Shown here: piece after piece, positions 3,808 to 53,738 of the stretch
Layout: every line of letters starts with the position of its first letter
Numbering within the stretch: position 1 is the stretch's first letter
NCBI GenBank assembly: GCA_903944345.1
Contig: CAJARJ010000021.1
Span: 5,528 to 69,527, forward strand
DNA: 64,000 nt
Direction of reading: 5' to 3'
Source: Candidatus Omnitrophota bacterium
GTDB lineage: Bacteria; Omnitrophota; Gorgyraeia; Zapsychrales; Fredricksoniimonadaceae
The notes under the pieces: model-generated
Told to the model about the DNA's origin: nothing
Databases searched by the model: none
The model's input: the letters and a program-made list of their open reading frames with translations, nothing else
Position numbers and translations under genes: made by a program

Positions 3808-4827
3808 ATGCATCAAGATCGCGGGTTGAGTGGCGAATCGCGGCGTTTTAGAAAGTGGCTTAAAGATATGGGAAAACGGCTTCAAGCAGGGAAAGTTGAG
3901 CGGCCATCAATTCTGGTTGTCGGTTGCGGGGCTTTGGGCACGGCCTGCCTGTTTCATTTGCGAAAAATAGCACAAGTATTCGGGTATGATTGTGACCGAG
4001 CCAGGAGTGAGGAGCTTTCCCGTGCTGGCGCGGGATTTCTAGGTGCCGGACGGGTCAGGCCGGTTGTGTTTAATGTCGCAGCAACCATGGAATGTTATCG
4101 AGGCAAAGTATTTGACGGTGTAATTTTCGCGACCAAATGCCGGGGGCTCCGCCCTGCGGTCCGTGTTTTTTCAGCATCAGGACGTGCCACAAGGGTTTTG
4201 TTCTTGCAGAACGGAGGAGATGATCTGCTTTGGGCCAAGTCCCTTCTAAGAGGGAGCAGGATTTGCCGGGGAGTAACCACAATGGCGGTCAGCTTGCAAG
4301 AGAGAAGCCGGGTTCGTCTTTATACAGCCGGAGAAACATTTCTGGGATCAATTGACAGGCAGAGGGAGGGTGCGCAATGGTTTGCTCATGTTTTTGCTGC
4401 TGCCGGATTGAATGTGCACCTGGTTAAGAATATTGCAGGAGCGGTATGGGCGAAGCTGATATTTAATGCGGTTATGAATCCGCTGCCGGTTTTGTGTTCG
4501 CAGAGCTATGCGGTTCTTCATCGGGATCGTTTATTGTATGCTTTGGCCAGGGATGCGATTAGAGAAGGAGTTGCTGTTGCGCGCAAGGCGAAAATTTGTC
4601 TGGCGTTTGATCCGCTGGCAAAATTGCGCGCGGTTCGTGAAGGAAGATTGAACACGGATAATTATTTTGGATCTATGTACGCGGATGCGACCATGGGTCG
4701 GGCAACAGAAATTGAAGAACTCACCGGATTGTTGGTGCGTCAGGCAAAGAGGCTTGGGGTGCCGGTTCCCCGGCTGGATACAATCTATGCTTTGACTCGG
4801 GCCAGACTTGAGAAAAAAGATGGATGA
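3808..4827 (+). CDS. Ketopantoate reductase (PanE/ApbA) family NAD(P)-dependent oxidoreductase
   Basis: Rossmann motif ILVVGCGALG near the N-terminus; KLIFNAVMNPL and SMYADATMGRATEIEELTG blocks typical of the 2-dehydropantoate 2-reductase family. The true start may be the internal M at ~3868. Confidence 0.55.
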   Translation: MHQDRGLSGESRRFRKWLKDMGKRLQAGKVERPSILVVGCGALGTACLFHLRKIAQVFGYDCDRARSEELSRAGAGFLGAGRVRPVVFNVAATMECYRGKVFDGVIFATKCRGLRPAVRVFSASGRATRVLFLQNGGDDLLWAKSLLRGSRICRGVTTMAVSLQERSRVRLYTAGETFLGSIDRQREGAQWFAHVFAAAGLNVHLVKNIAGAVWAKLIFNAVMNPLPVLCSQSYAVLHRDRLLYALARDAIREGVAVARKAKICLAFDPLAKLRAVREGRLNTDNYFGSMYADATMGRATEIEELTGLLVRQAKRLGVPVPRLDTIYALTRARLEKKDG

Positions 4828-5998
4828 AAATATTCTTCGACAAATGACAGGTTTGCTGCGCGGGTTTGCAAAATATGACCAGCGTTGGCAGCTTGACGGA
4901 GCCCTGAGAAGTTATGAACAGATCCGGAAGCTTCCGGTCATGTCACGGGAAGATCTTTTTTCCCATGTTCTTAAGTATGGGCTGAAGAATGCCAGTAATA
5001 TTTCTGCGACATCGGGTTCTACGTCTTGCAGTGTGTTGATCGGACATAGTCTGGTGGCTTATCGTGCGCATTTAGAGCGGTTGGTGCGTCTTTATAAAAC
5101 TTTGCCTGTCGCGCGGGGCTCGTTGTGTCTGAATATGTGCTCGTATGCACTTAATGGCGGCGGAAGACTGATGGAGGCGGGATATAAGGGGGCAGGATAC
5201 AGGGTGGTTGCGCTTGGTCCGCTTGATATGGAGTTGAAGGCGGATGAATTGCGGAGGCTGGTGCGCTGCCTGCGTCCAGCAATGGTCAATGCTTATGCAA
5301 ATCAACTTTATGGATTATTTTCGGCCATTGGCCTGGACAATCACGGGATCAGGCTGTGCGTGGTTAATGGCGAACCCTTGCTGCGAAATTACAAGAAAAC
5401 AATTGAGCGTTCTGCCGGGGTTGAGGTCTTTAATCATTACGGGGCCATGGAAATCTCAGGATTGGCTCTAGCCCGACGTTCAGGTGATGTGTTTATGCGG
5501 GTTGAGCCGTACGGGCTTTTGCTGGAGGTTCTTAAGGATAACGGACAATCGGGGTTATCTGGAAGAGGGGCGCTGCTGGTTACAGATCTTTTTAATCGCA
5601 GTATGCCGGTCATTCGCTATCAAATTGGTGATCGGGTTGATCTGGTGCGAAGAGAAGATGGATTCTATATCAAGGTTCTTGGGCGTCAGAACGGGTCTTT
5701 TCTTTTTGACGGAGAGGTTTATGCCACGCAAGAGCTGGAAAGTGCGGTCGCAGAAGTTCTGGAGCATTGCGAGTATTATTTTGTGATCCGAAAGTCGGAG
5801 GACACGGGGAAAGACGCCATGGAGCTAAGGATAGTTGGAAGACAAGACAAAGGGCTTCTTGGCCGGCTGGAAAAGGTCATGATTGAGCGTTTTCGCTTTG
5901 GTCGGGCTGTGCGCGTGCTTGGTGTTTGTGCAGCCGTCCCGCGTACGATTACGGGGAAAATTCGCCGGATAATGGATTTACGGGAAAAAGATATATGA
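4808..5998 (+). CDS. PaaK/F390-synthetase-like adenylate-forming enzyme (ANL superfamily)
   Basis: AMP-binding P-loop-like motif ATSGSTS; C-terminal PRTITGKIRR block typical of phenylacetate-CoA ligase / CapK-like adenylating enzymes. Its stop overlaps the next start (ATGA). Confidence 0.55.
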   Translation: MRKKMDENILRQMTGLLRGFAKYDQRWQLDGALRSYEQIRKLPVMSREDLFSHVLKYGLKNASNISATSGSTSCSVLIGHSLVAYRAHLERLVRLYKTLPVARGSLCLNMCSYALNGGGRLMEAGYKGAGYRVVALGPLDMELKADELRRLVRCLRPAMVNAYANQLYGLFSAIGLDNHGIRLCVVNGEPLLRNYKKTIERSAGVEVFNHYGAMEISGLALARRSGDVFMRVEPYGLLLEVLKDNGQSGLSGRGALLVTDLFNRSMPVIRYQIGDRVDLVRREDGFYIKVLGRQNGSFLFDGEVYATQELESAVAEVLEHCEYYFVIRKSEDTGKDAMELRIVGRQDKGLLGRLEKVMIERFRFGRAVRVLGVCAAVPRTITGKIRRIMDLREKDI

Positions 5999-7702: not shown

Positions 7703-8416
7703 ATGCTTGCAGCGGTTGCCGCGCTGAAAAATGTGTTACAGGGTTGCATGCCTTGCGTAACGAGCAGACGCCGGATAGCCATCCTTTTTACGGGCGGACT
7801 GGATTCTACGGTACTAGCGGCTCTTGCTGCTCACCAGCGGCCTGTTTTGGTCTTTGGGGTCGTACTTGATCGGGATTGCCGGGTTTATAACGCCCGGTCT
7901 ATTCTGTATTCGCGGCGTATCGCCGCTATTCTGGGACTTACGTTTAAAACAATCGGGATAAGTCAGCGGGATTATCATGACGGAATAAGGGCGATGTTAT
8001 CAGCGGGCGTATATTCAAAAGACAGAGATTTGCCTGCGGCGGCTTTCCTTGTCAAAGCCCTACGAGCTCAGGGGGTGGGAGGGGTGGTGAGCGGTATGGG
8101 GAGTAATGAGCTTTTCTCTGCCAGTAAAAGAACGTTATCGATGATTCCAGAACTGCAGGCAGCTTACAGTGAACATCGCCTGCTGGGTCGCGCAGAAAAA
8201 ATTATCTTTCGAGCGCCTTTTCTTGAGGAGCCAGTCATAAAGGTTGTGCGTGGACTTGTGCGCTCGGGGCATGCGCGTACAGACGTTCTGGGAGCGCTTC
8301 TGGCCGGTTATCCGGATGTCTGCCGGCTGATGAAAAAGAGAGTGTCCGGACATTCTATGGTGCCTAAAAGATTCTTGCCGGTTCGGATGACAGTCGAACC
8401 AGAAAAGGGTGTATGA
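7703..8416 (+). CDS. Asparagine-synthetase-like PP-loop domain protein, short form
   Basis: AILFTGGLDSTVLA PP-loop and VSGMGSNELF block; 237 aa. It diverges from 6941..7687 with only ~15 nt between the annotated starts. Confidence 0.5.
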   Translation: MLAAVAALKNVLQGCMPCVTSRRRIAILFTGGLDSTVLAALAAHQRPVLVFGVVLDRDCRVYNARSILYSRRIAAILGLTFKTIGISQRDYHDGIRAMLSAGVYSKDRDLPAAAFLVKALRAQGVGGVVSGMGSNELFSASKRTLSMIPELQAAYSEHRLLGRAEKIIFRAPFLEEPVIKVVRGLVRSGHARTDVLGALLAGYPDVCRLMKKRVSGHSMVPKRFLPVRMTVEPEKGV

Positions 8417-9246
8417 GAAAATCTGTTATGCCTGGCATTCCTCCGCAGGAGGCTGTTACTGTTTACGGGGGGTATGTGCGATATTATCATTCAACCGAAT
8501 CATGTCGTGATTTGGCAAGGCTGGCCGAGGAACGCAAGCTAAAACAGGTTCTGGCCTGTTGTGGCGGAGGTGATCAGGCATTGACTCTTTTGGCCGGACT
8601 GGATAAAAAAGGAATCTTTTGGGCATTTGATCTTCAACCGGCTCAGTTGTTTGTGCTTGCGGCCAAAGCGCTTTATCTGCTGGAACGTAAAAGCCCTCCA
8701 TTTTATCCGTCCTTTTCTGTGATACAAAAGATGTATCCTGGCCGTATTTCTGCCCAGCCCCCGGATCGACGGAGAGTTGATCGATTATACGATGCCCGGC
8801 TTAAATGTTTTAGGGATCCGTTCAAAATGTTTCAGAAAAGATTTCTTTATGAATGCGACGGAGGATTGTTTGAGGACGGGCAGAGAACCCCATTCTGGTC
8901 CCGGGATCGGGATTACTGTCAGTGTATTTGCCGGAATATTGTCCGGCTCAGGCTTCTACGGGGAGATTTGTTCTATCTTGATCATTTTTTTAAACCGGCA
9001 ACAGTTGATTTGATATATGTGTCGGATATTTCTTTGGTTGCCGCCCAGGATTTCTTGTTGCAACGGATATCAGCGACTGTAGCCTTGTTGAGGCGAGGGG
9101 GGTGCCTGGCAGCTAATGCGGATTCCGGGGAGAGGTTTCTGGGAAATGGGATTTCGGTAGCTGATATGCTGGAGAGAAATTCTTCCCGACTGGGGCTAAT
9201 GGCTGGCGGGGTCAGCGGGGCGCTCAAAGTTTTTGAGAAGGCCTGA
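8413..9246 (+). CDS. DUF3419 / BtaA-like class-I SAM-dependent protein (homolog of 3-amino-3-carboxypropyl transferases); paralog of 18373..19296
   Basis: Blocks VLACCGGGDQALTLL, AFDLQPAQLFVL and DLIYVSDI resemble the BtaA/DUF3419 motifs VLSI(S/T)SAGCNxLxLL, AVDLNPxQ and LSNIxDW. GGYVRYY is conserved with the paralog. Confidence 0.45.
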   Translation: MRKSVMPGIPPQEAVTVYGGYVRYYHSTESCRDLARLAEERKLKQVLACCGGGDQALTLLAGLDKKGIFWAFDLQPAQLFVLAAKALYLLERKSPPFYPSFSVIQKMYPGRISAQPPDRRRVDRLYDARLKCFRDPFKMFQKRFLYECDGGLFEDGQRTPFWSRDRDYCQCICRNIVRLRLLRGDLFYLDHFFKPATVDLIYVSDISLVAAQDFLLQRISATVALLRRGGCLAANADSGERFLGNGISVADMLERNSSRLGLMAGGVSGALKVFEKA

Positions 9247-10660
9247 GCATGTGTCAGAGAAGGGCGCGTTAATGCGAGTAAGAAGAAAAAAGTTCGCTAT
9301 TCTGCAACTTATTCCCAAGCATCAGAACATGCTGCCGAATCAGTTGGTCAGAGCACTGTCTTTACTCAAATATCATCAGGTCGAATATGCTGTTTATGAT
9401 CTGGAGGCTTCGCTGGAGGCCGAGGCGGGGCAGGCGGTCGCTTCTCTTTTTGCAAAGATCAGGGAAGACGAGGTTGTTGTTTCCCTGGCTTGTCATTACA
9501 ATTATCCCAAATTGACCAGCCTAGTGCTTTTGTTTATGTACCAAGGCCTGTTGAAGGGCAAGCAGATTCATGTGTGTTCGCCGTATCTGTCTTTTTATCC
9601 GGTCAAACAGATTTGTTGCGAGAATATGTTTTTTCATTTTGTCGAGATCGATGAGTTTCTGGTTTCGTATTCAGGGTGGCCTTTTGTAGCTGAGGGCCTG
9701 TTGCTCAAGCCAATGGCTGAAGTTCTACGTGATCAGAATTACACGAATCGTGAATTCTGGACGCATCTGACCTGGGGGTGTCGTTCCTCCTGTTCTTTTT
9801 GTCATAATTGGGCGACAGCCAAGGGCAGAGAGCGGCTTGTCTATTCTGGGTACGATGAGGTGCTTTCCTTGATGCAGACGGCTCGTGCGCTTGGTGCGCG
9901 CAAATTTCAGTTTGCCGATCCTGACTTTCTGGGGGATGCTGCCTATGTTGGAGGGTTTCTTGAAAAGCTGACGGAGGCGGGTGGGTTCTTGCCCTGGCGA
10001 GCCAAGGCAAGGTTAGACAGGATCAATGAGTCAATGTATGAAAAAATGCTTGCTGCGGGGTGTGATCGTATATTCTTTGGTGTGGAGCATGTATCTTCTC
10101 GAATGTTAGACAGGGTCAATAAAGGTGAGAATACTCCGCGGCTGCTTTTGGACTTTATAAAATATTGGGGAACACGCGTGCAGCTCGATGTTTCTTTTCT
10201 CACAGGAATACGTGAAGAGACGGTGTCCGAGTTAAGAGAAAATATTCGTTATATATCCAGAATAGACAAGATTCGCGGGATAGAGGCTTATTTGGGGTAT
10301 GTGATTCTGTATTCCGGGTCTGCACGCAAAGTGGCTTTTAGCGATTATCTGGTGGCCTTTCTGCTGGTTTGCAATATGTTGCCCGAGGAATGGGAAATTG
10401 GGCAGGACTTTCTCAGAAGATTGTTGCAACTCTGTCAGCAAGAGCCCTTTTTTGGCTTTTTTATTCTTACCGAGAATGACCATAGTTTAGCGTTGTTCCA
10501 AGAACTGCTCCGGCAGAATAAGGCGGATATTGCGCCGGATTTTCTTTCAGATTTCGCCAGATTGTGGACATCGGTGGATGGGCGGCTCGCGAAGATTGTT
10601 GCGGGATCAAAGACGACAGGGGAGGTTAACCAAAAGATAGATCAATGGCTACTGAAGTAA
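9233..10660 (+). CDS. B12-binding-domain radical SAM protein (class B rSAM-like); paralog of 19289..20668
   Basis: WGCRSSCSFC cluster motif (CxxxCxFC) after a ~170-aa N-terminal domain consistent with a cobalamin-binding fold. FQFADPDFLGD block shared with the paralog (FKFRDPDFLGV). Confidence 0.65.
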   Translation: MRRPEHVSEKGALMRVRRKKFAILQLIPKHQNMLPNQLVRALSLLKYHQVEYAVYDLEASLEAEAGQAVASLFAKIREDEVVVSLACHYNYPKLTSLVLLFMYQGLLKGKQIHVCSPYLSFYPVKQICCENMFFHFVEIDEFLVSYSGWPFVAEGLLLKPMAEVLRDQNYTNREFWTHLTWGCRSSCSFCHNWATAKGRERLVYSGYDEVLSLMQTARALGARKFQFADPDFLGDAAYVGGFLEKLTEAGGFLPWRAKARLDRINESMYEKMLAAGCDRIFFGVEHVSSRMLDRVNKGENTPRLLLDFIKYWGTRVQLDVSFLTGIREETVSELRENIRYISRIDKIRGIEAYLGYVILYSGSARKVAFSDYLVAFLLVCNMLPEEWEIGQDFLRRLLQLCQQEPFFGFFILTENDHSLALFQELLRQNKADIAPDFLSDFARLWTSVDGRLAKIVAGSKTTGEVNQKIDQWLLK

Positions 10661-12237
10661 AACAAAACAATAAAAGTGGTTTTAGGGTTTCTACAGACGG
10701 CCTCTTTCTGCTGATGCAGCTTTGCGTTGCTTTGGGTGGCGGGCTGATCCTTGCCTGGGCATTAGCTGCCTGGGGAATCGGGATCAATAGTGATTCTGAG
10801 GCGTATCATGTTATGTCCCGGTGTTTGTCGGAGAAAGAGGGAGCTTTTAATGCTGTACCGGATTGTAAAACGCTGTCCCTGCATTTTCCTCCATTGTATC
10901 CGTTGCTAATTTCATTGATGCGTGGCTGGACCGAGAGTTTTATGGAGCGTTCGGCGGGATTGAATGTTTTTCTTTATTCGGGAAGCATTTTTGTTTCCGG
11001 AAGCTTGTTTAAAAGGCTTACCGGCTTGCCGTTTATGGGGCCCGCCGGAGCCCTGCTTGTTGCTGTTGCCCCGGTGGTTGTCAAGGCGCATACGGAAGCC
11101 ATGACTGAGGCCGTGTTTATATTCCTTACGTTGGCCGGCTTGTTCTTCTTTTTATGTTATTTGGAAAGAACCAGTTATTGGCGGTTGCTGGCAGCAGGGG
11201 TTCTCACCGGGTTATCGTTATTGTGCCGTTTTGCCGGACTGACTACCATTTTGGCGATGATGGTGACGATAGTTCTTTTTAAATCGCAACAAAGAAAGCC
11301 AGCGATTTTTGATTCTGTATTTTTTGTGCTGATAGCGTTGATGCCTATGGGGGGGTGGTGGATCAGGAATTTTTTTGATTACGGATTGTCGCTGGATCGG
11401 ATTGTTGTTTTTCATCCGCCAGGATGGTCTGGGTGGAGTGAGGCGTCCGGGGTTTTTTGTATGTGGCTCATGAGTCCGGTTTTCTGTTCTTTTATAAAAG
11501 AGATTGTTTTGTTGCTGGGATTCGTTGTTTTTTTTCTATTCTGCTGGCGGATTGGTAAGGCGCTGGCACTCAGGAACACAAAAGATACGGAAATTTTTCT
11601 TTTTTGGTCTTTTATGGCGGTTATGGCGATCTTGTTTTACCTGATTGGACTGGTGTTGACGATTTCCTGGCTGGACGGGTATATGACTTTGTCGCGAAGG
11701 TATTTGTTGCCGGTTTATGTTTTTGCAATGATCCTTTTTCCGGCATGGTTGCTCAGAAGAACGATCTGTTGCCAGGCGTCAGGCTCCTTGAGAGTGTTTC
11801 TGGGAAAGGTCTTACTTGTCTATTGGGTGTTTTTCAATTGTTCGGTTTCTGTTACCTGGTTGTGGCAGCAGCACTCACGCGGGAGTGGTTATGCGAGCCG
11901 TAACTGGCGGCAATCACCAACGATGCAGGAGCTCTGCCGACTGTCGCGTGAACATGTGATTTTCACCAACCTCAAGGCAGCAGCAGTAATTCATTCGGGT
12001 GCCCGCATATTTGAGATTCCGTGGTTGTCAGATCCGATGAACAGCCGCATGAATGCTCATTACCAGCAAGAACTAGAACAAATGGTGCGGCAGATAAAGG
12101 CGGGTAACGGCCTGCTGGTCTATTTCGATCAAGCTCCGAGTGACTTGCCGATTGAGTCTGCGCAGGTTCTGACGGAACGGTTGTCTTTGCGCATGGTGGC
12201 AAAGTTTGCTGACGGGGCGGTTTATTTGCCGGAATAA
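10645..12237 (+). CDS. GT-C-fold polytopic membrane glycosyltransferase-like protein (ArnT/PMT family-like)
   Basis: 530 aa with ~11-13 TM helices, an acidic first extracytoplasmic loop (INSDSEAYHV) and a ~110-aa hydrophilic C-terminal region, as in GT39/GT83 enzymes. It sits directly upstream of two Thr/Asn-rich secreted repeat proteins. Confidence 0.45.
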   Translation: MATEVKQNNKSGFRVSTDGLFLLMQLCVALGGGLILAWALAAWGIGINSDSEAYHVMSRCLSEKEGAFNAVPDCKTLSLHFPPLYPLLISLMRGWTESFMERSAGLNVFLYSGSIFVSGSLFKRLTGLPFMGPAGALLVAVAPVVVKAHTEAMTEAVFIFLTLAGLFFFLCYLERTSYWRLLAAGVLTGLSLLCRFAGLTTILAMMVTIVLFKSQQRKPAIFDSVFFVLIALMPMGGWWIRNFFDYGLSLDRIVVFHPPGWSGWSEASGVFCMWLMSPVFCSFIKEIVLLLGFVVFFLFCWRIGKALALRNTKDTEIFLFWSFMAVMAILFYLIGLVLTISWLDGYMTLSRRYLLPVYVFAMILFPAWLLRRTICCQASGSLRVFLGKVLLVYWVFFNCSVSVTWLWQQHSRGSGYASRNWRQSPTMQELCRLSREHVIFTNLKAAAVIHSGARIFEIPWLSDPMNSRMNAHYQQELEQMVRQIKAGNGLLVYFDQAPSDLPIESAQVLTERLSLRMVAKFADGAVYLPE

Positions 12238-12408
12238 AACCCGGCTAACTGGAGCATGAGAGGAATAGATATTCGTTATTGTCTGAAATGGTTATATTTA
12301 TAGCATTTCTTGCCTGGGAGCCAGCAAATGTATAGTATTCTTTCAGGAAAGGAGAATGGAAAGCCTTTTCTGTTTTGTCTCTGAGCAGCCAACATTGAGT
12401 GGTCTTGC

Positions 12409-12437
12409 TTGACAGCCTTTCTTGTTGAGTGTTAAAC
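12409..12437 (+). promoter_or_regulatory. Candidate sigma70-like promoter for the repeat-protein genes
   Basis: TTGACA (12409-12414), 17-nt spacer, TTAAAC (12432-12437); the Shine-Dalgarno AAGAGGGG sits ~5 nt upstream of the ATG at 12457. Confidence 0.3.
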
Positions 12438-12456
12438 TTAATCAGAAAGAGGGGTT

Positions 12457-13005
12457 ATGCTCAAACTATTGATTTCCATTGTTTTGTATTTTTTCTCGTG
12501 CGCAGCGGCTTGGTCGGAGGAAATTATTCTGACCACCTTTTATCCGCCCCCTAGCGGGCAGTTTTTGAATCTGACTGTGTTGGGCACTTTGGGTGTAGTG
12601 AACATCAATATTACGGGAACACTGACTATCGCCACTTTAAATGTCACGGGGAATGCTTCAGTTGGTGGAACTTTGAATGCTCGCAATACAACGCTTGGCG
12701 CAACGCTGAACGTGACCGGGGCCACAACTCTTGCCAGCACCCTGAGTGCCGGAGCCACCTCGATTAATGGGACATTGAACGTGAGTGGGCTAACAACGCT
12801 GGGTGCTCTGAGTGCTGCAGCCACCACGGTTAACGGGACTTTGAATGTGACCGGGGCCACCGTAATTACTGGCGCGTTAAATGCTCGGGCGACGACAGTT
12901 AACGGGACTCTGAATGTGAGCGGGGCCATGACCAGTGGTGGGATGTCCGCAGGAGGTTTTACGACAGCGGGGACAACCCAATGCGGTTCTTTGAATCTGT
13001 ATTGA
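12457..13005 (+). CDS. Secreted Thr/Asn/Gly-rich tandem-repeat protein (predicted beta-solenoid and/or glycoprotein)
   Basis: Signal peptide MLKLLISIVLYFFSCAAAWS, then conserved TTFYPPPSGQF, then repeats of the type (A/T)TT(I/V)NGTLNVTG(A/V)TTL. Most Asn lie in N-x-T sequons. Confidence 0.6.
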   Translation: MLKLLISIVLYFFSCAAAWSEEIILTTFYPPPSGQFLNLTVLGTLGVVNINITGTLTIATLNVTGNASVGGTLNARNTTLGATLNVTGATTLASTLSAGATSINGTLNVSGLTTLGALSAAATTVNGTLNVTGATVITGALNARATTVNGTLNVSGAMTSGGMSAGGFTTAGTTQCGSLNLY

Positions 13006-13089
13006 AGGTTGATCTTTTGGGATCTTCTTTTCGGAAACGCCTTGCGTGTGTTTTATGCAAATGTTAAGCTTTGTATTAGAAAGGGTCGC

Positions 13090-13644
13090 ATGGCAAAAAT
13101 CTGGGGTTTACTGCTTTTTATAGTTCTCTCCGCTAGCAGAGCCTGGTCGGATAACCTGGTTTTGACTACATTTTATCCGGCTCCAAACGGGCAGTATTTC
13201 AATATGAATGTAACGGGCACTCTGTCGGCCAATAATCTGACAGTTACCGGAACATTGACCGCTGCCACATTGAATGTGACCGGAAACATGACCGTTGGTG
13301 GTGCATTGAGTGTTACCGGGGCCACAACAATCAACGGGACGTTAAACGTAACGGGGGTCACAACGCTGAATGTTTTGAATGCCCGTAATACAACAATTAA
13401 TGGGACGTTAAACGTAACGGGGGTCACAACCCTTAGCACTCTGATTGCGGCCGCCACAACAATCAACGGGACGCTGAACGTGACCGGGGCCGCAACGCTT
13501 GCCAGCACTCTAAGTGCCGGTGCGACAACGGTGAACGGTGGGCTGGGTGTTACCGGAAATTCGACAGTAGGCGGCACGGTAACTGCCACCGGGTTTACAA
13601 CAGGGGGAACCCTGACGACCAATCGGCTGATTATTTGTCCCTGA
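13090..13644 (+). CDS. Secreted Thr/Asn/Gly-rich tandem-repeat protein, paralog of 12457..13005
   Basis: Start moved to the internal ATG at 13090, which has an AAGGG RBS (track ORF starts at 13009). Signal peptide MAKIWGLLLFIVLSASRAWS; conserved TTFYPAPNGQY; ~22-aa repeats VTGxTTLxxLxAxxTTINGTLN; 13 of ~21 Asn in N-x-T. Confidence 0.6.
   Translation: MAKIWGLLLFIVLSASRAWSDNLVLTTFYPAPNGQYFNMNVTGTLSANNLTVTGTLTAATLNVTGNMTVGGALSVTGATTINGTLNVTGVTTLNVLNARNTTINGTLNVTGVTTLSTLIAAATTINGTLNVTGAATLASTLSAGATTVNGGLGVTGNSTVGGTVTATGFTTGGTLTTNRLIICP
13230..13560. repeat. Intragenic near-identical tandem DNA repeats (~33 and ~66 nt units) encoding the NGTLNVTG repeats
   Basis: The units GGGACGTTAAACGTAACGGGGGTCACAAC and AACGGGACG(C/T)T(A/G)AACGT(A/G)AC(C/G)GGGG recur within 13.3-13.5 kb. 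A similar set lies at 12.6-12.93 kb in the upstream paralog. Confidence 0.55.
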
Positions 13645-13653
13645 TTCCATCAA

Positions 13654-14091
13654 ATGCGGGAGAACTTCATGAAGAAATTATTGCAAACGGCGGGCTGGGT
13701 CAGGCTGCCGGTTCAAACAGCTGTTTATCCTGTGCAGACAATTTATTCTGCCGGGTATGTTTTTCTAGATCGGGCCTATTTCTATCTGGAACCGGATGGC
13801 AAGAATGCTGTGTCCGTATGGATGAGTCCAAAAAAGAAAACAGATGATCTGGAATTGCTGGCCAAGGAGTTTTATCAGGAATTGCTTAATTACGCGCACT
13901 ATTTTATCAGCCTTAAGTCTAATGGAGATCACGTCAGGCTTTTGTTGCAGAGAGCGCTTTTTTCTGCCGCGCCTTCATTGGTCAAGGAGGCTGAAGAGCG
14001 CGAAATTCAGCAACTGATCAAGGAACTGGAGCAGGAGGATTTGTCGGCTTCGAAGAAGAAACAGAGCAAGAAGCCACCCGCTTCGACTTAG
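13654..14091 (+). CDS. Hypothetical protein (possible HxsD-like accessory protein of the maturase cassette)
   Basis: 145 aa, with a hydrophilic, Lys/Glu-rich C-terminus. It is first in the co-directional run 13654 > 14122 > 15092 > 16485 > 16933 with short gaps or overlaps. The functional call rests on position only. Confidence 0.35.
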   Translation: MRENFMKKLLQTAGWVRLPVQTAVYPVQTIYSAGYVFLDRAYFYLEPDGKNAVSVWMSPKKKTDDLELLAKEFYQELLNYAHYFISLKSNGDHVRLLLQRALFSAAPSLVKEAEEREIQQLIKELEQEDLSASKKKQSKKPPAST

Positions 14092-14121
14092 AATTGTACT
14101 TGTAGCAAGCGGGAACGGGAG

Positions 14122-15111
14122 TTGATTATGAGCGTTGCGATTGCCCCGGAGATGCAGAATCTTTTTAGCAGGCCGGCAGAAAAATTTGCCAAAAGAGTGG
14201 TTGTTTTTACAGGATTCAATTGTTCCAATAAATGCTGTTTTTGTGCGGTTGAGTCTAAGCGTCCGGCCGTAGATAAGACGACCGAAGAAGTTCTGCGGGA
14301 GATGGCGCGTGCTTACGAGCGGGGCGCCCGGCAACTGGTGCTTTCCGGAGGGGAATGCACTTTAAGAAAAGATATTGTTGATTTGGTGCGGGCCGCCCGT
14401 CAAAAAGGCTTTGTGGATGTGCATATTCAGAGCAATGGTCGAAGGTTTTCTGATATCGGGTTTTGCAAGGAAATGTTTGCGGCAGGCATGAGTTATCTAG
14501 GGACATCGATTCATGGCCCTAGCGGCGCGGTGCATGATGATTTGACCGCAAGGCCGGGCAGTCTGCGTGAAGTTGTTGAAGGCATTCATAATCTTAAAAG
14601 GCTTGCCCGGGGACGTATTGGCATTGCGATTAACTCGGTCATGGTCCGGCAGAATTTTGCTTTATTACCAGAGACAGCCAGTCTTTTAGTCAGATTACGG
14701 CCGGATTTGCTGCAGTTCGCGTTTGTGCATGCTTGCGGCTTTACAGAAGAGCGTTTCAGAAGATTTGTTCCCAGAAAGACGGACGTTGTTGCCTATGTCA
14801 AGCAGGGAGTAGATATAGCTGTTGGCGCAGGGATTCCGGTTATGGTGGAGGCAATTCCTTACTGTCTTTTGACCGGCTATGAGAAGCATTGTTCGGATCG
14901 GTTTATTCCCTCTACGGATGTGATTGAGCCGGGACGGGAAATTTTGAATTACGAGCAGGTTCGGCTTCGCAGCAGCAAACGCAAGTTTGCCCGTTGCCTG
15001 GACTGTCGTTTTGATGCGATTTGTGAAGGGCCGTGGCAGCAGTATCCTGAGCATTATGGAGATGAGGAATTCCAACCGGTAGAGGCAGAGTATGTCAACC
15101 AGAGAGCTTGA
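14122..15111 (+). CDS. Radical SAM protein (HxsC-like candidate)
   Basis: FNCSNKCCFC cluster motif; SGGECTL SAM-binding block; C-terminal Cys pairs (CLDCRFDAIC). Overlaps the next gene by 20 nt. Confidence 0.75.
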   Translation: MIMSVAIAPEMQNLFSRPAEKFAKRVVVFTGFNCSNKCCFCAVESKRPAVDKTTEEVLREMARAYERGARQLVLSGGECTLRKDIVDLVRAARQKGFVDVHIQSNGRRFSDIGFCKEMFAAGMSYLGTSIHGPSGAVHDDLTARPGSLREVVEGIHNLKRLARGRIGIAINSVMVRQNFALLPETASLLVRLRPDLLQFAFVHACGFTEERFRRFVPRKTDVVAYVKQGVDIAVGAGIPVMVEAIPYCLLTGYEKHCSDRFIPSTDVIEPGREILNYEQVRLRSSKRKFARCLDCRFDAICEGPWQQYPEHYGDEEFQPVEAEYVNQRA

Positions 15112-16501
15112 GTTTTTTGTTGTTCCCTACAACTCGAAGAAAATAGGCCAGCGGCATCTTGTGTCCAACAAGCTAGGCGGGTGGGCTTTTCTTGATCACA
15201 AGGACTTTGCGACGCTTTCTTCTCTGGATTGTCAGCCCGGCACGGAGCTTTTTGAGCGTTTGCGAAACGCCGGGGTGGTGGCGGATGTATCTAATATCGG
15301 GTCTTTGTTGAGCGGTTACCGCAAAATGAACCAGAATCTTTTTTCAGATACCAGTCTGCACATTGCAGTCGTGACGACTCGTTGCAATTTGGCCTGTCAA
15401 TATTGTCAGGCTCGGCCAGAGTCGGGCGAGGATATGTCCCCTGAGGTTGCCTCACGTGTCCTGAAATATCTTTTTGATGTCCGCAATCCTTCGGTCATGC
15501 TGGAATTTCAGGGCGGGGAGCCGCTAATGAATTGGCCGGTTGTTTCTCTTTTAACGGAGCATGCGCGCAAATTCAATACGTCCGGCAAGCAGTTGCAGAT
15601 TGCCATGGTCAGCAATTTCTTATTGTTGACCGAGGAGCAGATCAAGTTTCTTGTCGAGCACGAGGTTAATCTTTGTACGTCTCTGGATGGGCCGGAAGAT
15701 TTACATGATCAGAACCGGAAGGATTGGGCTGGCAAGGGGACTTACAAGGAATTAATGCGCAAAGTGGATCTTGTGCGCAAGAAATTCAACTGGCCGGTGC
15801 ACATGCTTCCGACGATTACCAGAGCTTCGCTCAAACACGCGCGCCGGATTATCGATGAGTATGTGCGTCAGGGGCAGCTGGAAATCTGCCTGCGTCCAGT
15901 GAATGATATGGGGGCGGCGCGTTGTTCCTGGAAGAGTCTGGGATATACGCCGGAAGAGTTTCTTGCTTTCTATCGGGAAGCCTGCGAATATATTTTTGAG
16001 TTGAATCGCAAGGGGATTGCCGTTCGGGAGCGAATGGCCAGAGTTCTTATGACCAAGGCTCTTTTTAAAGAAGATCCGCGCTATGTAGATGTGATGAATC
16101 CCTGTGGGGCCGGCAGAGTGGTTATGACGTATATGCCGGATGGTGGCTGCTTTCCTTGTGACGAAGCCCGGATGGTAGGCGGGGATCTTTTTAAACTGGG
16201 GAATATTTTAAAGGACGACTATAAAGATGTTATTTGTAGTGAGAACCTTTTGAATCTTTTGCAGTCTTCCTGTTCGGATCTTTGGCAAAGCGCTTCAGTT
16301 TACAGCCCTTGGACGGGATATTGTCCGGTCGTTAATTACGCGACTCAGCAGAATGTGATTGCAAAGTCAGCCTGTTCCCAGGCCCAGAGAATTTTGGAGG
16401 GGCAGTTTGATTATCTTTTCGAGAAACTGGAACAGGGTGGGGAAAACGAAATGTTTTTAAGGGAATGGGCGAAAGGAATGGCGCATGAAGAAAAAAAATA
16501 A
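15092..16501 (+). CDS. Radical SAM / SPASM-domain peptide-maturase-like protein (HxsB-like candidate)
   Basis: TTRCNLACQYCQ preceded by a ~90-aa N-terminal extension that may bind the precursor; GGEPLMN block. C-terminal auxiliary-cluster Cys pattern CGAGRVV...DGGCFPCDE...WTGYCPV...CS, typical of SPASM enzymes (anSME- and sactisynthase-like). Overlaps the start of the first precursor. Confidence 0.8.
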   Translation: MSTRELEFFVVPYNSKKIGQRHLVSNKLGGWAFLDHKDFATLSSLDCQPGTELFERLRNAGVVADVSNIGSLLSGYRKMNQNLFSDTSLHIAVVTTRCNLACQYCQARPESGEDMSPEVASRVLKYLFDVRNPSVMLEFQGGEPLMNWPVVSLLTEHARKFNTSGKQLQIAMVSNFLLLTEEQIKFLVEHEVNLCTSLDGPEDLHDQNRKDWAGKGTYKELMRKVDLVRKKFNWPVHMLPTITRASLKHARRIIDEYVRQGQLEICLRPVNDMGAARCSWKSLGYTPEEFLAFYREACEYIFELNRKGIAVRERMARVLMTKALFKEDPRYVDVMNPCGAGRVVMTYMPDGGCFPCDEARMVGGDLFKLGNILKDDYKDVICSENLLNLLQSSCSDLWQSASVYSPWTGYCPVVNYATQQNVIAKSACSQAQRILEGQFDYLFEKLEQGGENEMFLREWAKGMAHEEKK

Positions 16502-16916
16502 TCAGCAGCAAGCGCGCCCGAGAATTCCGCGTTCTCTGAGGCTATTTATCCGGGATGAAGAGGGGTTTGTCAGCAAAGAAACTATTTTGAATGTCGGATT
16601 GACGGCGATAGGTGTGGTCGGGCTGTTGGGAATTTCTTCTGATGTGGTCAATGCCGCGCACTCCAGTCACGCTTCACATTCCAGTTCCGGTGGCGAACAT
16701 GGCAGCACGACAATACCGGGGACAAGCTATGCCATGACCGCGCATATTAATGATGTTGTCTATCCCGCTACACCGGCCGGAGGATCCTGCATGGAGCTAA
16801 GTCCACCGACGCATTCCAATGTTGCGGCAACGCATTGCAACCGGGCGGCTGTGCATGGAAGCTCCATATCAACGCATACGAATGTTACGCCGCATGCAAA
16901 TCATGACTCGTATTAG
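16485..16916 (+). CDS. His-rich precursor-like protein A1 (His-Xaa-Ser/Asn triplets; HxsA-like)
   Basis: 143 aa. Basic N-region MKKKNNQQQARPRIPRSLRLFIRDEEGFVSKET, hydrophobic segment ILNVGLTAIGVVGLLGI, a VNA|AHS site, then a core AHSSHASHSSSGGEHG...GGSCMEL...THCN...HANHDSY with 11 His in 88 aa and 2 Cys. Confidence 0.65.
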   Translation: MKKKNNQQQARPRIPRSLRLFIRDEEGFVSKETILNVGLTAIGVVGLLGISSDVVNAAHSSHASHSSSGGEHGSTTIPGTSYAMTAHINDVVYPATPAGGSCMELSPPTHSNVAATHCNRAAVHGSSISTHTNVTPHANHDSY

Positions 16917-16932
16917 CAAAGCGAGAGGATAT

Positions 16933-17355
16933 ATGAAAATAGACAAGACCAAAAGCAGGATTTTCAAGGCCCCGCGGACGCTAAAAGGATTTCTTGACGG
17001 AGAAGATGGCTATGTCAGCAAGGAAGCTATTTTGAATGTCGGATTGGCCACGATTGGCGTTTTGGGGGTGATGGGATCTTTTTCCGACCCGGCTTATGCC
17101 GCGCACAGCAATCATGGTTCGCATAGCAATGGAGCCGGGACTTTTCATGCCAATGCCTCGGCAGGGCATGTCAATACGGCTGTGGCGCATAGTAATCTGC
17201 AGCATTATGATGATTTCCCATCCGGTGGGTGCCGCGAGTTGCTGCCGGATCACAACAATATTGCTGCGGCGCATTGCAATGTTGGGGCCACGCATTCCAA
17301 CATTCCGGGCACACATGGCAACACCAGCGGGCACGCCAATCATTCCTCGTATTGA
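16933..17355 (+). CDS. His-rich precursor-like protein A2, paralog of A1
   Basis: Start placed at the ATG at 16933, which has a GAGAGGA RBS (track ORF 16819 is a spurious 5' extension overlapping A1). N-region and hydrophobic segment ILNVGLATIGVLGVMG are near-identical to A1; AYA|AHS site; core AHSNHGSHSNGAG...GGCREL...AHCN...HANHSSY with 13 His in 87 aa and 2 Cys. Confidence 0.65.
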   Translation: MKIDKTKSRIFKAPRTLKGFLDGEDGYVSKEAILNVGLATIGVLGVMGSFSDPAYAAHSNHGSHSNGAGTFHANASAGHVNTAVAHSNLQHYDDFPSGGCRELLPDHNNIAAAHCNVGATHSNIPGTHGNTSGHANHSSY

Positions 17356-17426
17356 CAAGGCGAGAGAGATTGGAGTTTTGGTCAATAAACAGGCGTATTT
17401 TTTGACCATCAGCCAAAGGTTCTCGG

Positions 17427-18398
17427 ATGGATTTTCCATATCTTGATTCTGCTGATACCCCTCAGATTGCGGCATTATGGCTCAGGAACAATTATGCGCC
17501 CGCCGTTCCTCGAACCCAATTGATCGAGCATATTCGCTGGAAATATGATTCCCGACGAGCTGTGATTTACAGCCAAAGGGAAGAGGGCCGGATTTTTGCC
17601 ACAACAGGCTACTTAAAGGGATCTTTCTGCAATGGAAACAGCATTTTTAGTATTGGTTGGGGCATGGACTCTCTGATTGATGAGCCGTTAAGAGATGGTC
17701 GTGTGTTTGCCTTTATGCGTGTATTGCGCTCTACCATGCGTTCTGCCGAGCACGAAATTCTGGTTGCTTTTGCCAACAAGAACGTTCACGACACCTATTT
17801 ACGGATTGGTTTCCAGCCTTGGAATGGTTTTTTCTTTTATCAGGCAAAGCTGCAAGCCGGGATGGTGCTGCCAGTTCGACCCGACAGGGGGTTTGATCTT
17901 TTATGGAAAGATGAGCTGGATGTGTCGGGGGCTGAAGCTCTGTTCAGGCGAACGCAGGGGTTTTATCAGGGGATCAGTCCGAGAGACAAGGAATATCTGG
18001 ACTGGCGTTATGGTCAATGTCCTTTTCGTCGGCATGTGTTTCTGCATGTTTATCGGCAAAGGGTTTTGGTTGGATATTGTGCGGTACGCTTTGTTTTGCA
18101 ACCGGAATCGCGGACAGGCTATATTGTGGATCTTCTGGATTCTCCCGACGATGATGCCGTGCTGGAGGTTATGTTGCTGGAGCTTATGGCACGTTGCCGG
18201 CAGCGAGAAATTGCGCAGATCGAAACTGTTTTGACGAATGGGCGGATTTCACAGGGACTGTTGCGTTGTGGATTTTTTCGGCAGCAGCAGGAAACTGTGT
18301 TGGTGTGGCTGAAGAGTGACCGGGCACGCAGGTTTTTTGAACAGGGTTCGACAGGCATGCATTTGACGATGAGTGACGGCGATTATGATATGGAATAA
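17427..18398 (+). CDS. Hypothetical protein, possibly a GNAT-fold / FemAB-like acyltransferase
   Basis: 323 aa. The C-terminal half has a GNAT-like topology (VGYCAVRF...GYIVDLL...LELMARCRQREIAQIE); I recognised no diagnostic motif. Confidence 0.3.
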   Translation: MDFPYLDSADTPQIAALWLRNNYAPAVPRTQLIEHIRWKYDSRRAVIYSQREEGRIFATTGYLKGSFCNGNSIFSIGWGMDSLIDEPLRDGRVFAFMRVLRSTMRSAEHEILVAFANKNVHDTYLRIGFQPWNGFFFYQAKLQAGMVLPVRPDRGFDLLWKDELDVSGAEALFRRTQGFYQGISPRDKEYLDWRYGQCPFRRHVFLHVYRQRVLVGYCAVRFVLQPESRTGYIVDLLDSPDDDAVLEVMLLELMARCRQREIAQIETVLTNGRISQGLLRCGFFRQQQETVLVWLKSDRARRFFEQGSTGMHLTMSDGDYDME

Positions 18399-19296
18399 GT
18401 TAGGTAGTGGGCAAGGTTCGCAATGGCCCCGGAAGGAGAAGAGTATGGTTGGCGTTCACCGCAAGCCGCTGGATATAGAAGAAATGATGACAACGTGCGG
18501 CGGGTTTGTACGCTATTTTGGCACCAATGAACCGGTGTCGCATATTGCCAGTGTCCTGGAGAAAACAGTATTCCGTCGGGTTTTGGCTTGCTGTGGAGGA
18601 GGGGATCAGGCTTTGACATTGCTCGGGCTGGCGGGGCGCCCTTCAGAAATTTATGCGTTTGACATGAATCTGGCGCAGCTGTTTGTTCTGGCCTGCAAGG
18701 CCCAGCTCTTCAAGGATAAGAAAATGAAGACGTATGCTCCTTCTTTCGATCGGATCAGCCGGTTGAACATGGGAAGAATTCGCGCCCTTCCTAATGATGT
18801 TCGGCCCGTGGATACGCTGCTGACTATTCCAGGAGAAAGAAAGATTGCGCTGGAACATGTTTTTGCCGGCCGGTTTGGCTACGAGGTCGACACCGGGATG
18901 CACGATTTTCTCAAGAAGAATATTTACTGGGCAGATGATGCGCGTTTTATTTCCAGGATTCGTTCCGGATTGCCGGCGCTTAAAGGAATTCATTGTGATT
19001 TGCTTTCCTTGTCGGACTGGTTTGCGCCGGATTATCTCGATGTGATATATGTGTCGGATATCCCTTTGCACAATGCTATTCCTTATTATCTGGAAAGACT
19101 GCGTTGCCTGGTGGATTGTCTGGCGCCGGGTGGATTGTTTATTGGCAATCTGGAGGATCAGGCGGTTCTGGATCGCTGCCCGTCGGTGATTGAGGTGATG
19201 CGCAGTTATAAGGATTTGTTCGGGTTAGTGGAGTTCAGGAAAACAGGACAAATTCTGGCTTTACGCAAGGTGCGGCCTGTCAGAAGTATTGGATAA
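18373..19296 (+). CDS. DUF3419 / BtaA-like class-I SAM-dependent protein (paralog of 8413..9246)
   Basis: GGFVRYF, VLACCGGGDQALTLLGLAG, AFDMNLAQLFVL and LDVIYVSDIP blocks. Confidence 0.45.
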   Translation: MTAIMIWNKLGSGQGSQWPRKEKSMVGVHRKPLDIEEMMTTCGGFVRYFGTNEPVSHIASVLEKTVFRRVLACCGGGDQALTLLGLAGRPSEIYAFDMNLAQLFVLACKAQLFKDKKMKTYAPSFDRISRLNMGRIRALPNDVRPVDTLLTIPGERKIALEHVFAGRFGYEVDTGMHDFLKKNIYWADDARFISRIRSGLPALKGIHCDLLSLSDWFAPDYLDVIYVSDIPLHNAIPYYLERLRCLVDCLAPGGLFIGNLEDQAVLDRCPSVIEVMRSYKDLFGLVEFRKTGQILALRKVRPVRSIG

Positions 19297-20668
19297 AAGA
19301 ACGATGCCCCGAGAAATTGCTGTCATTTTTTTTGCGCAGGATGACCGTGTTGTGCCGGTGGATTTGGTTGAGGCCATTGCCTGGTTGGAACAGTCGGGAA
19401 TCAGGCACAAGCTTTACATGCCGGCACGCGGGAAAAGAGGCAGCTGGCGGCAAGCTGTTGCTGAAACTTTGAGCGGAGTCCAGGCGGATGAAGTGTTTGT
19501 ATGTTTTTTGAATGAAAATCATTATCTGGCAACAGCGTCTTTACTTCAGCTGGTCTTTTGTGCAGAGTTTCTCGGGGATAGAGATATTCATGTCTGCCTG
19601 CCGGCTTTAAGTTTGTTTAGGGGGCGGCCTGCGTTGCGGGGGCGTTTTGTCTGGCACGCAAAGAAACTGACGCAGGTTCTTGGTGAACGGCTGGACGGGT
19701 TGAAAAAAGAGCGGTTATTCTCACCGGAAGTCCTTGCCGATGTCACGGTTCGTCTCGGATACAGAAGACAGATCCTTTCGGCTCTCTGGTCGCCGGGGTG
19801 CGGGCACAGCTGTTCGTTTTGTTTTTCCCGTGACAACGGAGAAATGATTGAGCCTGATGCCGGCATTCGTCAGGAAAAACTAGTTTTTCTGCTTGAGCTG
19901 GCGCGTTTAACCGAAGCAAGTTGTTTTAAATTTCGTGATCCTGACTTTCTGGGAGTTCCCGCTAACGCCTGGGAGGCGTTGCGGATTCTTGGTTCTGTCG
20001 CTCCGGGTACAGCGTTTAGATGTAACGCACGACTGGAAGACCTCAATAGAGAGGCACTTGTGCGTCTTGCGGACGCCGGATGCTCCCAGGTATTTTCCGG
20101 TGTGGAGCATGTTTCGATGCGCCTGGTGGAGGCGACAGGAAAACAGGAGAAAGTTCTCGGTCTATTAGCGGGCGTGTTGGCCCATAAACCCCGCAAGATG
20201 GATCTTGCCTTGTCTTTTCTGGCCGGCCTTCCGGGAGAGACCTTGCCGGAGGCGAAGGATAATTTGTGTTTGATCAGGAAGTTAATGAAGTTGAAGGGGG
20301 TTAAACCATATCTTGGGTATTATGTTTTGTTTGCCCAAGAGGTCCGGTCAGGGGCTTTTTTCGATCCCTTGCTGGCTTGCCTGAATTTTTCGGCGATTGT
20401 TCCCGAGGGCATGTTTCTGGATTATCAGGATTATTGTGGCCTGCTAAAGACAGTTAGAGAAGATGCTTTTTTCAGTTTTTTTGCTGCTGCCCTTAATCGA
20501 AACAGCGCTGAGGTTATTCGAATGTTGCTGCGCGAATTTAGCGCGGACGCATGCTTGTCTGAGTGCATGCCGATGGCTAGAAAACTGCTTCTGTTGCGCC
20601 CGGAGCTGGCCAATAGAATAATGAGTGAGCTTGGTGCGCCAACGTTTTTGTGCAGGGGGGCTGTGTGA
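19289..20668 (+). CDS. B12-binding-domain radical SAM protein (paralog of 9233..10660)
   Basis: PGCGHSCSFC cluster motif after a ~165-aa N-terminal domain; FKFRDPDFLG and FSGVEHVSMRL blocks shared with the paralog. Confidence 0.65.
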   Translation: MDKRTMPREIAVIFFAQDDRVVPVDLVEAIAWLEQSGIRHKLYMPARGKRGSWRQAVAETLSGVQADEVFVCFLNENHYLATASLLQLVFCAEFLGDRDIHVCLPALSLFRGRPALRGRFVWHAKKLTQVLGERLDGLKKERLFSPEVLADVTVRLGYRRQILSALWSPGCGHSCSFCFSRDNGEMIEPDAGIRQEKLVFLLELARLTEASCFKFRDPDFLGVPANAWEALRILGSVAPGTAFRCNARLEDLNREALVRLADAGCSQVFSGVEHVSMRLVEATGKQEKVLGLLAGVLAHKPRKMDLALSFLAGLPGETLPEAKDNLCLIRKLMKLKGVKPYLGYYVLFAQEVRSGAFFDPLLACLNFSAIVPEGMFLDYQDYCGLLKTVREDAFFSFFAAALNRNSAEVIRMLLREFSADACLSECMPMARKLLLLRPELANRIMSELGAPTFLCRGAV

Positions 20669-28584: not shown

Positions 28585-28707
28585 GTTATCGGAATGTTGA
28601 TTACAATGATGCAACAGCTTGCTGTACGAACGGTTTGATCGGAGCCCCCCGATAATTATAGAGCTTGAGTTTAATTCTATATATTTAGAACAAGGAACAT
28701 TGGAATC

Positions 28708-53663: not shown

Positions 53664-53738
53664 TCCTAAAGCAGGACCCCATGGGGGGCTTTGTTTCGTG
53701 GGGCAGAGATCCGGGCTAACACACAGTCGGGAATATGT

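Follow-up and report, generated by a model that had tools for sequence, protein, structure and literature searches.

A 64,000-nt stretch of a contig from a Candidatus Omnitrophota bacterium (hereafter the window) carries, in succession on the forward strand, a gene for a membrane glycosyltransferase of the GT-C class and two genes for small secreted proteins, here called A and B, which are rich in threonine and asparagine and built of short tandem repeats. The locus raises the question of what A and B are: acceptors of sugar from the adjacent enzyme, substrates of the radical S-adenosylmethionine (rSAM) enzymes encoded around them, partners of the HXS-type module that follows, remnants of a phage, or structural proteins of the cell envelope. 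The evidence leans towards the last of these, and A and B are probably Sec-exported, beta-helical, nearly uncharged fiber or rod proteins of the envelope or cell surface, in which a short N-terminal motif would act as a handle for assembly, anchoring or export and the Thr/Asn rod would be exposed and possibly adhesive.

Proteins A and B and their repeat family

Proteins A and B share 55% identity. In each the signal peptide ends in AWS, and the motif TTFYP(P/A)P(S/N)GQ(F/Y) occupies residues 26–36 of each precursor, five residues past the cleavage site, reading TTFYPPPSGQF in A (nt 12532–12564) and TTFYPAPNGQY in B (nt 13165–13197); only about 20 residues lie between the cleavage site and the first repeat in either protein. 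Residue autocorrelation peaked at 11 and 22/23 residues (z 3.3–7.6 against shuffles), and a 66-nt repeat was detected in gene B by Tandem Repeats Finder (TRF). The signal peptide, the motif and the ~11/22-residue repeats had all been pointed out in a preliminary description of the locus and were recovered here, whereas its figure of more than 25% Thr holds for mature B only: Thr accounts for 19% of precursor A and 23% of precursor B, rising to 21.6% and 26.2%, respectively, in the mature proteins. Asp is absent from mature A, in which charged residues amount to only about 2%. Each mature chain contains one Cys, located near the C-terminus in A, and B terminates in ...RLIICP; neither protein contains His, and hence neither has His-x-Ser repeats. 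A lipoprotein reading of A, prompted by FFSC before AAAWS, was rejected, as B and the orthologs have no lipobox and the AWS/AWA/CWS cleavage context is conserved.

Comparison with orthologs yielded ratios of nonsynonymous to synonymous substitution rates (dN/dS) of 0.17–0.18 for A and 0.07 for B, compared with 0.14–0.18 for the GT-C and 0.08 for HxsC. Because these ratios are low, A and B are genuine, constrained genes under purifying selection. Two open reading frames (ORFs) on the minus strand (129 aa at 12540–12929 and 149 aa at 13173–13622) cross the repeat regions of A and B, and since the sense frames are under purifying selection, they are regarded as by-products of the codon composition of the repeat. 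The three plus-strand ORFs lie where they had been placed in the preliminary description, except for the start of gene B, which is ATG 13090 and not TTG 13009; an AAAGGG ribosome-binding site lies upstream of this ATG, and gene callers chose the same start on identical metagenome contigs. Gene A is preceded by an AGAGGGG ribosome-binding site. The exact sequences of A and B were reported absent from a collection of 15 billion proteins, though their genes are called on the identical contigs L005–L008, which come from stratified-lake samples, and low-complexity proteins may be under-represented in that protein index.

A profile of A and B, scored in a full HMMER scan against 1.84 billion cluster representatives, retrieved 1,582 of them at E ≤ 1e-3, of which 328 remained at E ≤ 1e-10, with E-values of family members reaching 1e-67. 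Matches were confined to the repeat region (query positions ~40–175), and many of them were proteins of 1,000–4,200 aa in which as many as 19 stretches matched. When 67 shorter members were scanned against Pfam, 13 carried Peptidase_S74, two Gp34_trimer and two Peptidase_G2, with one occurrence each of Collar, Gp53-like_C, Gp10_C and YadA_anchor, and 23 of the 67 matched the Bactofilin beta-helix profile (best E 1e-30). Judged by its sequence, the repeat of A and B is thus of the widespread 'x-T-L-x-V-T-G-x-T-T-L' fiber-shaft type and not special to this locus; the preliminary description had noticed the repeat but missed both this common tail-fiber-shaft type and the wider N-terminal motif family described below. 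The same 11-residue repeat (x-T-L-x-V-[TS]-G-x-T-T-L) and a beta-rich composition characterize the shafts of phage tail fibers and bacterial fibers with Peptidase_S74, Gp34_trimer or Collar ends. Unlike these, A and B are very short (about 160 aa when mature), bear Sec signal peptides, carry almost no charge and have Asn in the turn where the others have Asp or Gly, and the Pfam scan detected no trimerization, chaperone, collar or tip domain in either of them.

A beta-solenoid or fiber fold is suggested by this family context and, weakly, by modeling. Against the Bactofilin profile PF04519, a right-handed beta-helix that is strongly matched by relatives, A and B scored 16.8 and 18.8 bits (E 0.008 and 0.002), below the gathering cutoff of 27.9. 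An AlphaFold2 (AF2) monomer model of B, built from a two-sequence alignment, was all-beta, each stretch of 22 residues forming three short strands that resemble the three-strand coils of bactofilins, but of low confidence (predicted local distance difference test, pLDDT, 56). Its Foldseek neighbors, none of them significant, were nearly all beta-solenoids (fusolisin, bactofilin, tapirin, CsgA, LpxD and a tailspike), and when B and the family member P0151 were compared with PDB sequences, the S74 domain alone matched and no structure of the repeat emerged. The structure prediction proposed at the outset as a check for a beta-helix gave a periodic all-beta pattern, at low confidence and with no significant PDB match. 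Bactofilins lack signal peptides and form cytoskeletal polymers in the cytoplasm, whereas A and B have signal peptides in addition to scoring below the cutoff. The likeness to ice-binding or adhesin-like beta-solenoids, likewise proposed at the outset, found some support: A and B are exported and predicted to be all-beta, their family matches bactofilin, and the motif-sharing relative P0148 matches the ice-binding-like adhesive domain pAdhesive_15 (PF20597; 26 bits against a cutoff of 23.8), but A and B themselves gave no match to PF20597 even at E ≤ 10.

A word-index search with A returned only two matches, P0001 and P0002, both located in phage tail-gene modules, without retrieving A itself, and a search with the first 80 residues of B returned two short fragments only. 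These closest matches would fit an origin of A and B as remnants of a prophage tail fiber gene. Such an origin is most improbable, however, as both proteins carry Sec signal peptides, the neighborhood holds no phage genes, the paired orthologs are under purifying selection, and the motif is common to cellular secreted proteins.

The N-terminal motif family

The motif was back-translated and scanned against GTDB genomes (4 loci) and JGI metagenomes (9 loci) with a strict pattern, which under-samples both the extent of the family and its link to pilins; the genome to which the window belongs was not among the GTDB matches. All matches fell in ORFs, 5–8 residues past a signal-peptide cleavage site, and their hosts were two Omnitrophota-labeled, one Kiritimatiellales-labeled and one Planctomycetales-labeled metagenome-assembled genomes (MAGs) and nine metagenome contigs. 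The motif genes are usually arrayed as 2–3 tandem paralogs whose remaining sequence is wholly different, with C-terminal parts comprising YadA-like NTAxG repeats, 'VGIGT...KLxV' tail-fiber-like motifs, Cys-rich domains or a ~200-aa globular domain. In seven loci, representing two lineages (L011, L013, L014, L020, L021, L023 and L024), the arrays directly follow 2–3 type IV pilin- or pseudopilin-like genes with GFTLIE-type N-termini on the same strand, at gaps of roughly 40–370 nt, which suggests that the motif arrays are linked to pilus or type II secretion system (T2SS)-like machinery. GuaB of L011 (2678–3838) and GuaB of L013 (576–1736) are nearly identical by eye and the flanking motif-protein/pilin synteny is the same; one of the two MAG labels (Omnitrophota or Kiritimatiellales) is probably wrong.

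Closer relatives of A and B, namely P0050/P0090, P0148, P0079 and three tandem genes of L027, share the motif almost exactly (LVLTTYYPAPNGQY) and run on into longer shafts with coiled-coil or Cys-rich C-terminal ends. The three motif-bearing fiber genes of L027 (3–4766), two of them apparently frameshifted, have repeats that read GNLDMTSGxISNVTTLGTSGNVSxGG and C-terminal knobs containing 'GKMYAQTP...NTVATKxYVD'. They are preceded by a 5'-truncated gene for a polytopic membrane protein (459 aa) with a YYYYYYY run, which had no Pfam or NCBIfam match and no similarity to the GT-C by hhalign or hmmsearch. No Pfam or NCBIfam model covers the TT[FY]YPxPxGQ[FY] motif, the proteins of the arrays recovered by the motif scan matched none, and literature searches on the motif, on the repeat with tail fibers and on Omnitrophota with tail fibers returned nothing relevant; because neither a model nor a literature match was found, the motif appears to define a wider family that is as yet undescribed.

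The motif would function as a handle, because it is the sole element common to otherwise unrelated secreted fiber-like proteins of Omnitrophota and the Planctomycetes–Verrucomicrobia–Chlamydiae (PVC) group. According to the proposed mechanism, signal peptidase I would cleave A and B after AWS, placing the motif five residues from the new N-terminus, and the mature proteins would be paralogous short beta-helical rods of about 160 residues, with Leu, Val and Ile pointing inward and Thr and Asn making flat, uncharged outer faces. The motif would then serve in assembly, anchoring or export, whereas the repeat rod would be the exposed and possibly adhesive part. A comparable division of labor is known from the mosaic adhesive trimer (MAT) fibers of Bdellovibrio bacteriovorus, which are signal-peptide-bearing, surface-displayed, phage-tail-fiber-like proteins that combine a conserved N-terminal element with a variable fiber and tip (PMC10769870). 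Compared by description only, the motif family follows a like architectural logic, but the conserved N-terminal part of the MAT fibers is a beta-rich domain of about 130 aa (PMC10769870), whereas here it is a motif of about 20 residues, and A and B have no tip.

Sequon density and the adjacent GT-C enzyme

The Asn residues of A and B lie in N-x-T in 9 of 16 cases in A and 12 of 20 in B, close to the 60% originally estimated; with N-x-S/T counted, the figures are 12 of 16 and 12 of 20. The 12 N-x-S/T sequons per protein compare with shuffle means of 4.2 (A) and 5.5 (B) (5,000 shuffles, p ≤ 0.001), and the density of 7.4 per 100 aa exceeds the 90th percentile of the repeat family (3.2; median 2.25). 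In the family consensus Thr stands at fixed positions, so that a sequon arises wherever Asn lies two residues before it, and the N-x-T richness would stem from this regular Thr combined with an unusual use of Asn in the turns. At the x of TLxV[TS]G the repeat family has G in 29%, D in 25%, A in 14% and N in 7.6% of cases, compared with N in 9 of 9 cases in A and B. Sequon richness is only partly a repeat effect. The density is still high in orthologs (4.4–6.6 per 100 aa), whereas single sequons drift: 8 of the 12 sequons of A are kept (four lost) at 85% identity and 4 of 12 (eight lost) at 72%, and the lost ones are replaced by neutral A, T, G or NVN and never by Asp. Selection that keeps a Thr/Asn surface free of charge would account for this pattern no less well than selection acting on particular sites of glycosylation.

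Within the GT-C protein, residues 121–238 matched Pfam PMT_2 at 30.4 bits (gathering cutoff 26.1), and the only NCBIfam match was to the LA_3751/LA_3752 family (36 bits; cutoff 200). A search of 5.8 billion clustered proteins yielded no more than seven homologs at E ≤ 1e-5. The enzyme has two invariant motifs, D50-S51 and F81-P82-P83-x-Y85; its D50 is kept in all seven homologs down to 23% identity and lies as a first-loop Asp between the modeled helices 17–43 and 49–62; a small C-terminal alpha/beta domain spans residues ~415–530. Structural matches to the AF2 model (pLDDT 67; predicted template modeling score, pTM, 0.72) were GT-C enzymes only, with STT3, ArnT and PglB appearing together in Foldseek at E~1e-5. 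The enzyme is likewise polytopic and resembles the PMT/ArnT/STT3 class (GT-C_A) in its first-loop Asp and its small extracytoplasmic C-terminal domain, but it gave no equivalog-level match to ArnT, Pmt or PglB, no STT3 match in Pfam and no WWDYG motif. The 'ArnT-like' names are JGI labels on homologs of 23–24% identity. The protein is a bona fide GT-C enzyme, closest to the PMT-like group and not STT3-like, although neither fold nor profile scores distinguish between classes of acceptor. The classification by hidden Markov models (HMMs) proposed in the preliminary description accordingly gave PMT_2, and neither STT3 nor the ArnT equivalog; its ArnT/PMT-like label stands as regards the GT-C fold and the PMT_2 match, but the enzyme does not classify as a dedicated transferase of 4-amino-4-deoxy-L-arabinose (Ara4N) to lipid A.

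The GT-C, A, B and HxsD remain together in relatives that have GT-C enzymes of 83% and 67% identity. This conserved adjacency raises the possibility of a glycoprotein–enzyme pair, in which the GT-C would move a sugar from a polyprenyl-phosphate donor to Thr of A and B, as PMT-like enzymes do, or to Asn of N-x-T in the periplasm. The retained D50, the 22–26% Thr of the mature chains, a sequon density about twice the family 90th percentile with Asn in place of the usual Asp or Gly, and the density still seen in orthologs all fit such a pair, and if A and B are glycosylated, O-linked modification on Thr is more plausible than N-linked. PglB-type enzymes need the extended sequon D/E-x-N-x-S/T, and all 24 sequons in A and B lack D or E at position −2. 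The absence of STT3 features and the drift of single sequons count further against the pair, and the synteny evidence covers one narrow lineage only.

The GT-C ORF shares 16 nt with the rSAM gene before it, and because that gene itself overlaps its predecessors, the GT-C is probably the last gene of an upstream operon (7703–12237) distinct from that of A; a 220-nt gap, in which the TG-extended promoter candidate of Table 1 sits, separates it from gene A. Its nearest non-orthologous homolog (28% identity) belongs to an O-antigen-like polysaccharide cluster (L016, 1–20298), which also holds Wzy_C, MptE-like and STM0557-like glycosyltransferase genes, several GT2 and GT4 genes and two further GT-C-like genes (DUF6311 and PMT_2). 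Moreover, a search of all ORFs in the available DNA of 14 other motif loci with the GT-C HMM found no homolog. The earlier proposal that the GT-C acts on the repeat proteins thus found no support in the coupling to the upstream rSAM gene, the missing STT3 features, the polysaccharide-cluster homolog or the motif loci, and a glycoprotein–enzyme pair is considered possible but doubtful.

The HXS-type module, the rSAM surroundings and the place of A and B

Downstream of B, the genes run in the order HxsD-HxsC-HxsB-HxsA-HxsA (13654–17355; Table 1) and form a complete but divergent HXS-type module. The two HxsA3-like proteins combine His-x-Ser repeats with a membrane anchor at the N-terminus (NCBIfam HisXaaSer_A3, E 2.7e-10 and 3.3e-8) and are the expected substrates of HxsB and HxsC. 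HXS is an anti-phage system in which rSAM-matured HxsA blocks phage DNA entry from the periplasm; more than 99.8% of the described systems are limited to the four proteins HxsA to HxsD, 99.7% occur in Pseudomonadota and 99.6% have the order D-B-C-A (PMC13128918). All four kinds of protein are present here too, among the neighbors of A and B and apparently outside Pseudomonadota, but the order is D-C-B-A-A and the matches are to HxsC4 and HxsA3 variants, below cutoffs, the HxsC4 model being a rare one. No peptidoglycan-binding domain was found in the HxsA-like proteins (copy 2 had no Pfam match, both copies matched only HxsA3 in NCBIfam, and copy 1 was scanned against NCBIfam only). PADLOC reported generic viperin-like rSAM similarity only for HxsB and HxsC, and no match for A, B or the GT-C.

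Table 1 Features of the locus and its surroundings (positions in the 64,000-nt window)
Feature	Position	Strand	Description
DUF2334/deacetylase-like gene	1104-1856		present in window
Upstream operon ending in GT-C	7703..10660 before GT-C	+	successive ORF overlaps 4, 14, 16 nt
Asn-synthase-like PP-loop protein	7703-8416	+	Pfam/NCBIfam scan
277-aa protein, no family match	8413-9246	+	Pfam/NCBIfam scan
rSAM enzyme	9233-10660	+	weak best matches to B12-binding rSAM families (Pfam/NCBIfam)
GT-C membrane glycosyltransferase	10645..12237	+	530 aa, polytopic, PMT_2-like
Sigma-70-like promoter candidate	12409..12438	+	TTGACA, 18-nt spacer, TAAACT, TG-extended −10; 10/12 consensus matches, consensus match only
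Repeat protein A	12457..13005	+	182 aa; signal peptide 1-20, motif, 11/22-aa repeats
Repeat protein B	13090..13644	+	184 aa; signal peptide 1-20, motif, three near-perfect 22-aa repeats
DNA tandem repeat within gene B	13321..13500	+	TRF: period 66 nt, 2.8 copies, 75% matches
HxsD-like	13654-14091	+	NCBIfam HxsD 35 bits; precomputed Pfam HxsD match on identical contig
HxsC-like	14122-15111	+	NCBIfam HxsC4 131 bits (best), HxsC 95 bits
HxsB	15092-16501	+	NCBIfam 368.9 bits vs cutoff 370
HxsA3-like His-x-Ser repeat protein, copy 1	16485-16916	+	NCBIfam HisXaaSer_A3, below cutoff
HxsA3-like His-x-Ser repeat protein, copy 2	16933-17355	+	NCBIfam HisXaaSer_A3, below cutoff
DegT aminotransferase	23149-24261		present in window
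GT28-like gene	27382-28728	minus	present in window

The stop codon of B lies only 10–25 nt before hxsD without a terminator-like site between them, a spacing that is the same in L017. A and B could on this basis be accessory envelope parts of the HXS-type module, co-transcribed with hxsDCB-AA and acting with HxsA at phage adsorption or DNA entry, a role in keeping with their tail-fiber-type repeat and with the blocking of phage DNA entry from the periplasm by HXS (PMC13128918). This role is nevertheless unlikely, considering that nearly all described systems make do with four proteins, that motif-bearing relatives occur elsewhere without nearby Hxs genes (in the 14 other motif loci, phmmer searches of every ORF with HxsB, HxsC and HxsD gave no match), that PADLOC recognized neither A nor B, and that the adjacency is documented in one lineage only.

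The A/B-Hxs block is embedded in a co-directional cluster of about ten rSAM genes (5926–27344), between two occurrences (7703–10660 and 18373–22155) of a module composed of a DUF3419-like protein of ~280–300 aa, an rSAM enzyme with weak matches to B12-binding rSAM families and an Asn-synthase-like protein. The cluster also holds the DegT aminotransferase, three rSAM/SPASM genes and a PaaK-like adenylating enzyme (4808–5998), and the DegT, GT1-type (here GT28-like) and deacetylase-like (DUF2334) genes named in the preliminary description were all present. That description had further suggested that A and B might be the real substrates of the rSAM enzymes, either as precursors of the ribosomally synthesized and post-translationally modified peptide (RiPP) kind or as targets of protein modification, which would accord with the many rSAM genes and with the position of A and B immediately upstream of HxsD, HxsC and HxsB. 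The suggestion is highly unlikely to be correct, as the flanking rSAM pair HxsC/HxsB, accompanied by HxsD, has its own canonical substrates in the two HxsA3-like proteins, A and B have no His-x-Ser repeats and one Cys per mature chain, and their repeat family is structural and found mostly in large fiber proteins.

Elsewhere in the window, two adjacent giant ORFs of 1,422 and 1,375 aa occupy 49395–57818, the first with a signal peptide and no Pfam match. Long ORFs are nearly all on the plus strand, the GC skew is strongly positive throughout (1–64000, +0.09 to +0.26 per 2 kb) and no tRNA genes are present; an Rfam scan of 10000–18000 gave no match. IlvD shows 59% identity to its counterpart in an Omnitrophota MAG, a resemblance that is not decisive for the lineage.

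Several points weigh against the preferred reading of A and B as exported beta-helical rods. The structure model is of low confidence, and in no solved structure could this repeat be recognized by sequence; a monomeric solenoid and a trimeric fiber cannot be told apart, so that either oligomeric state may apply; and the tip or head domain that most fiber adhesins possess is missing in A and B. In addition, the function of the motif is deduced from its conservation pattern alone, and the Asn at nine of nine turn positions and the sequon density are not explained by the family consensus and leave room for glycosylation. A broader proposal would treat [signal peptide]-x(4-8)-TT[YF]YPxPxG[QE][YF] as a new N-terminal sorting or assembly signal of mosaic tail-fiber-like surface proteins across Omnitrophota and the PVC group, perhaps operating via type IV pilus or T2SS-like machinery, with the minimal A/B pair densely glycosylated by the orphan GT-C or cooperating with the HXS-type phage-entry barrier; taken as a whole, this proposal is speculative and has a modest chance of being right.

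The repeat and the GT-C fold are of known kinds, the motif family is apparently new, and the tip-less, Asn-saturated form of A and B is unusual. At present, A and B are most likely a well-defined, not extraordinary pair of fiber-like envelope proteins. If they are glycosylated by the orphan GT-C, the enzyme would be a GT-C that glycosylates proteins yet falls outside the PglB and Pmt lineages known so far. If the motif indeed serves as a handle for anchoring or export, it would provide a simple sequence tag for surface fibers and adhesins of Omnitrophota, Kiritimatiellota and Planctomycetota. These groups are largely uncultured, and little is known of their cell-surface biology or of how they might attach to hosts or prey; such a tag would parallel the MAT fibers of Bdellovibrio.

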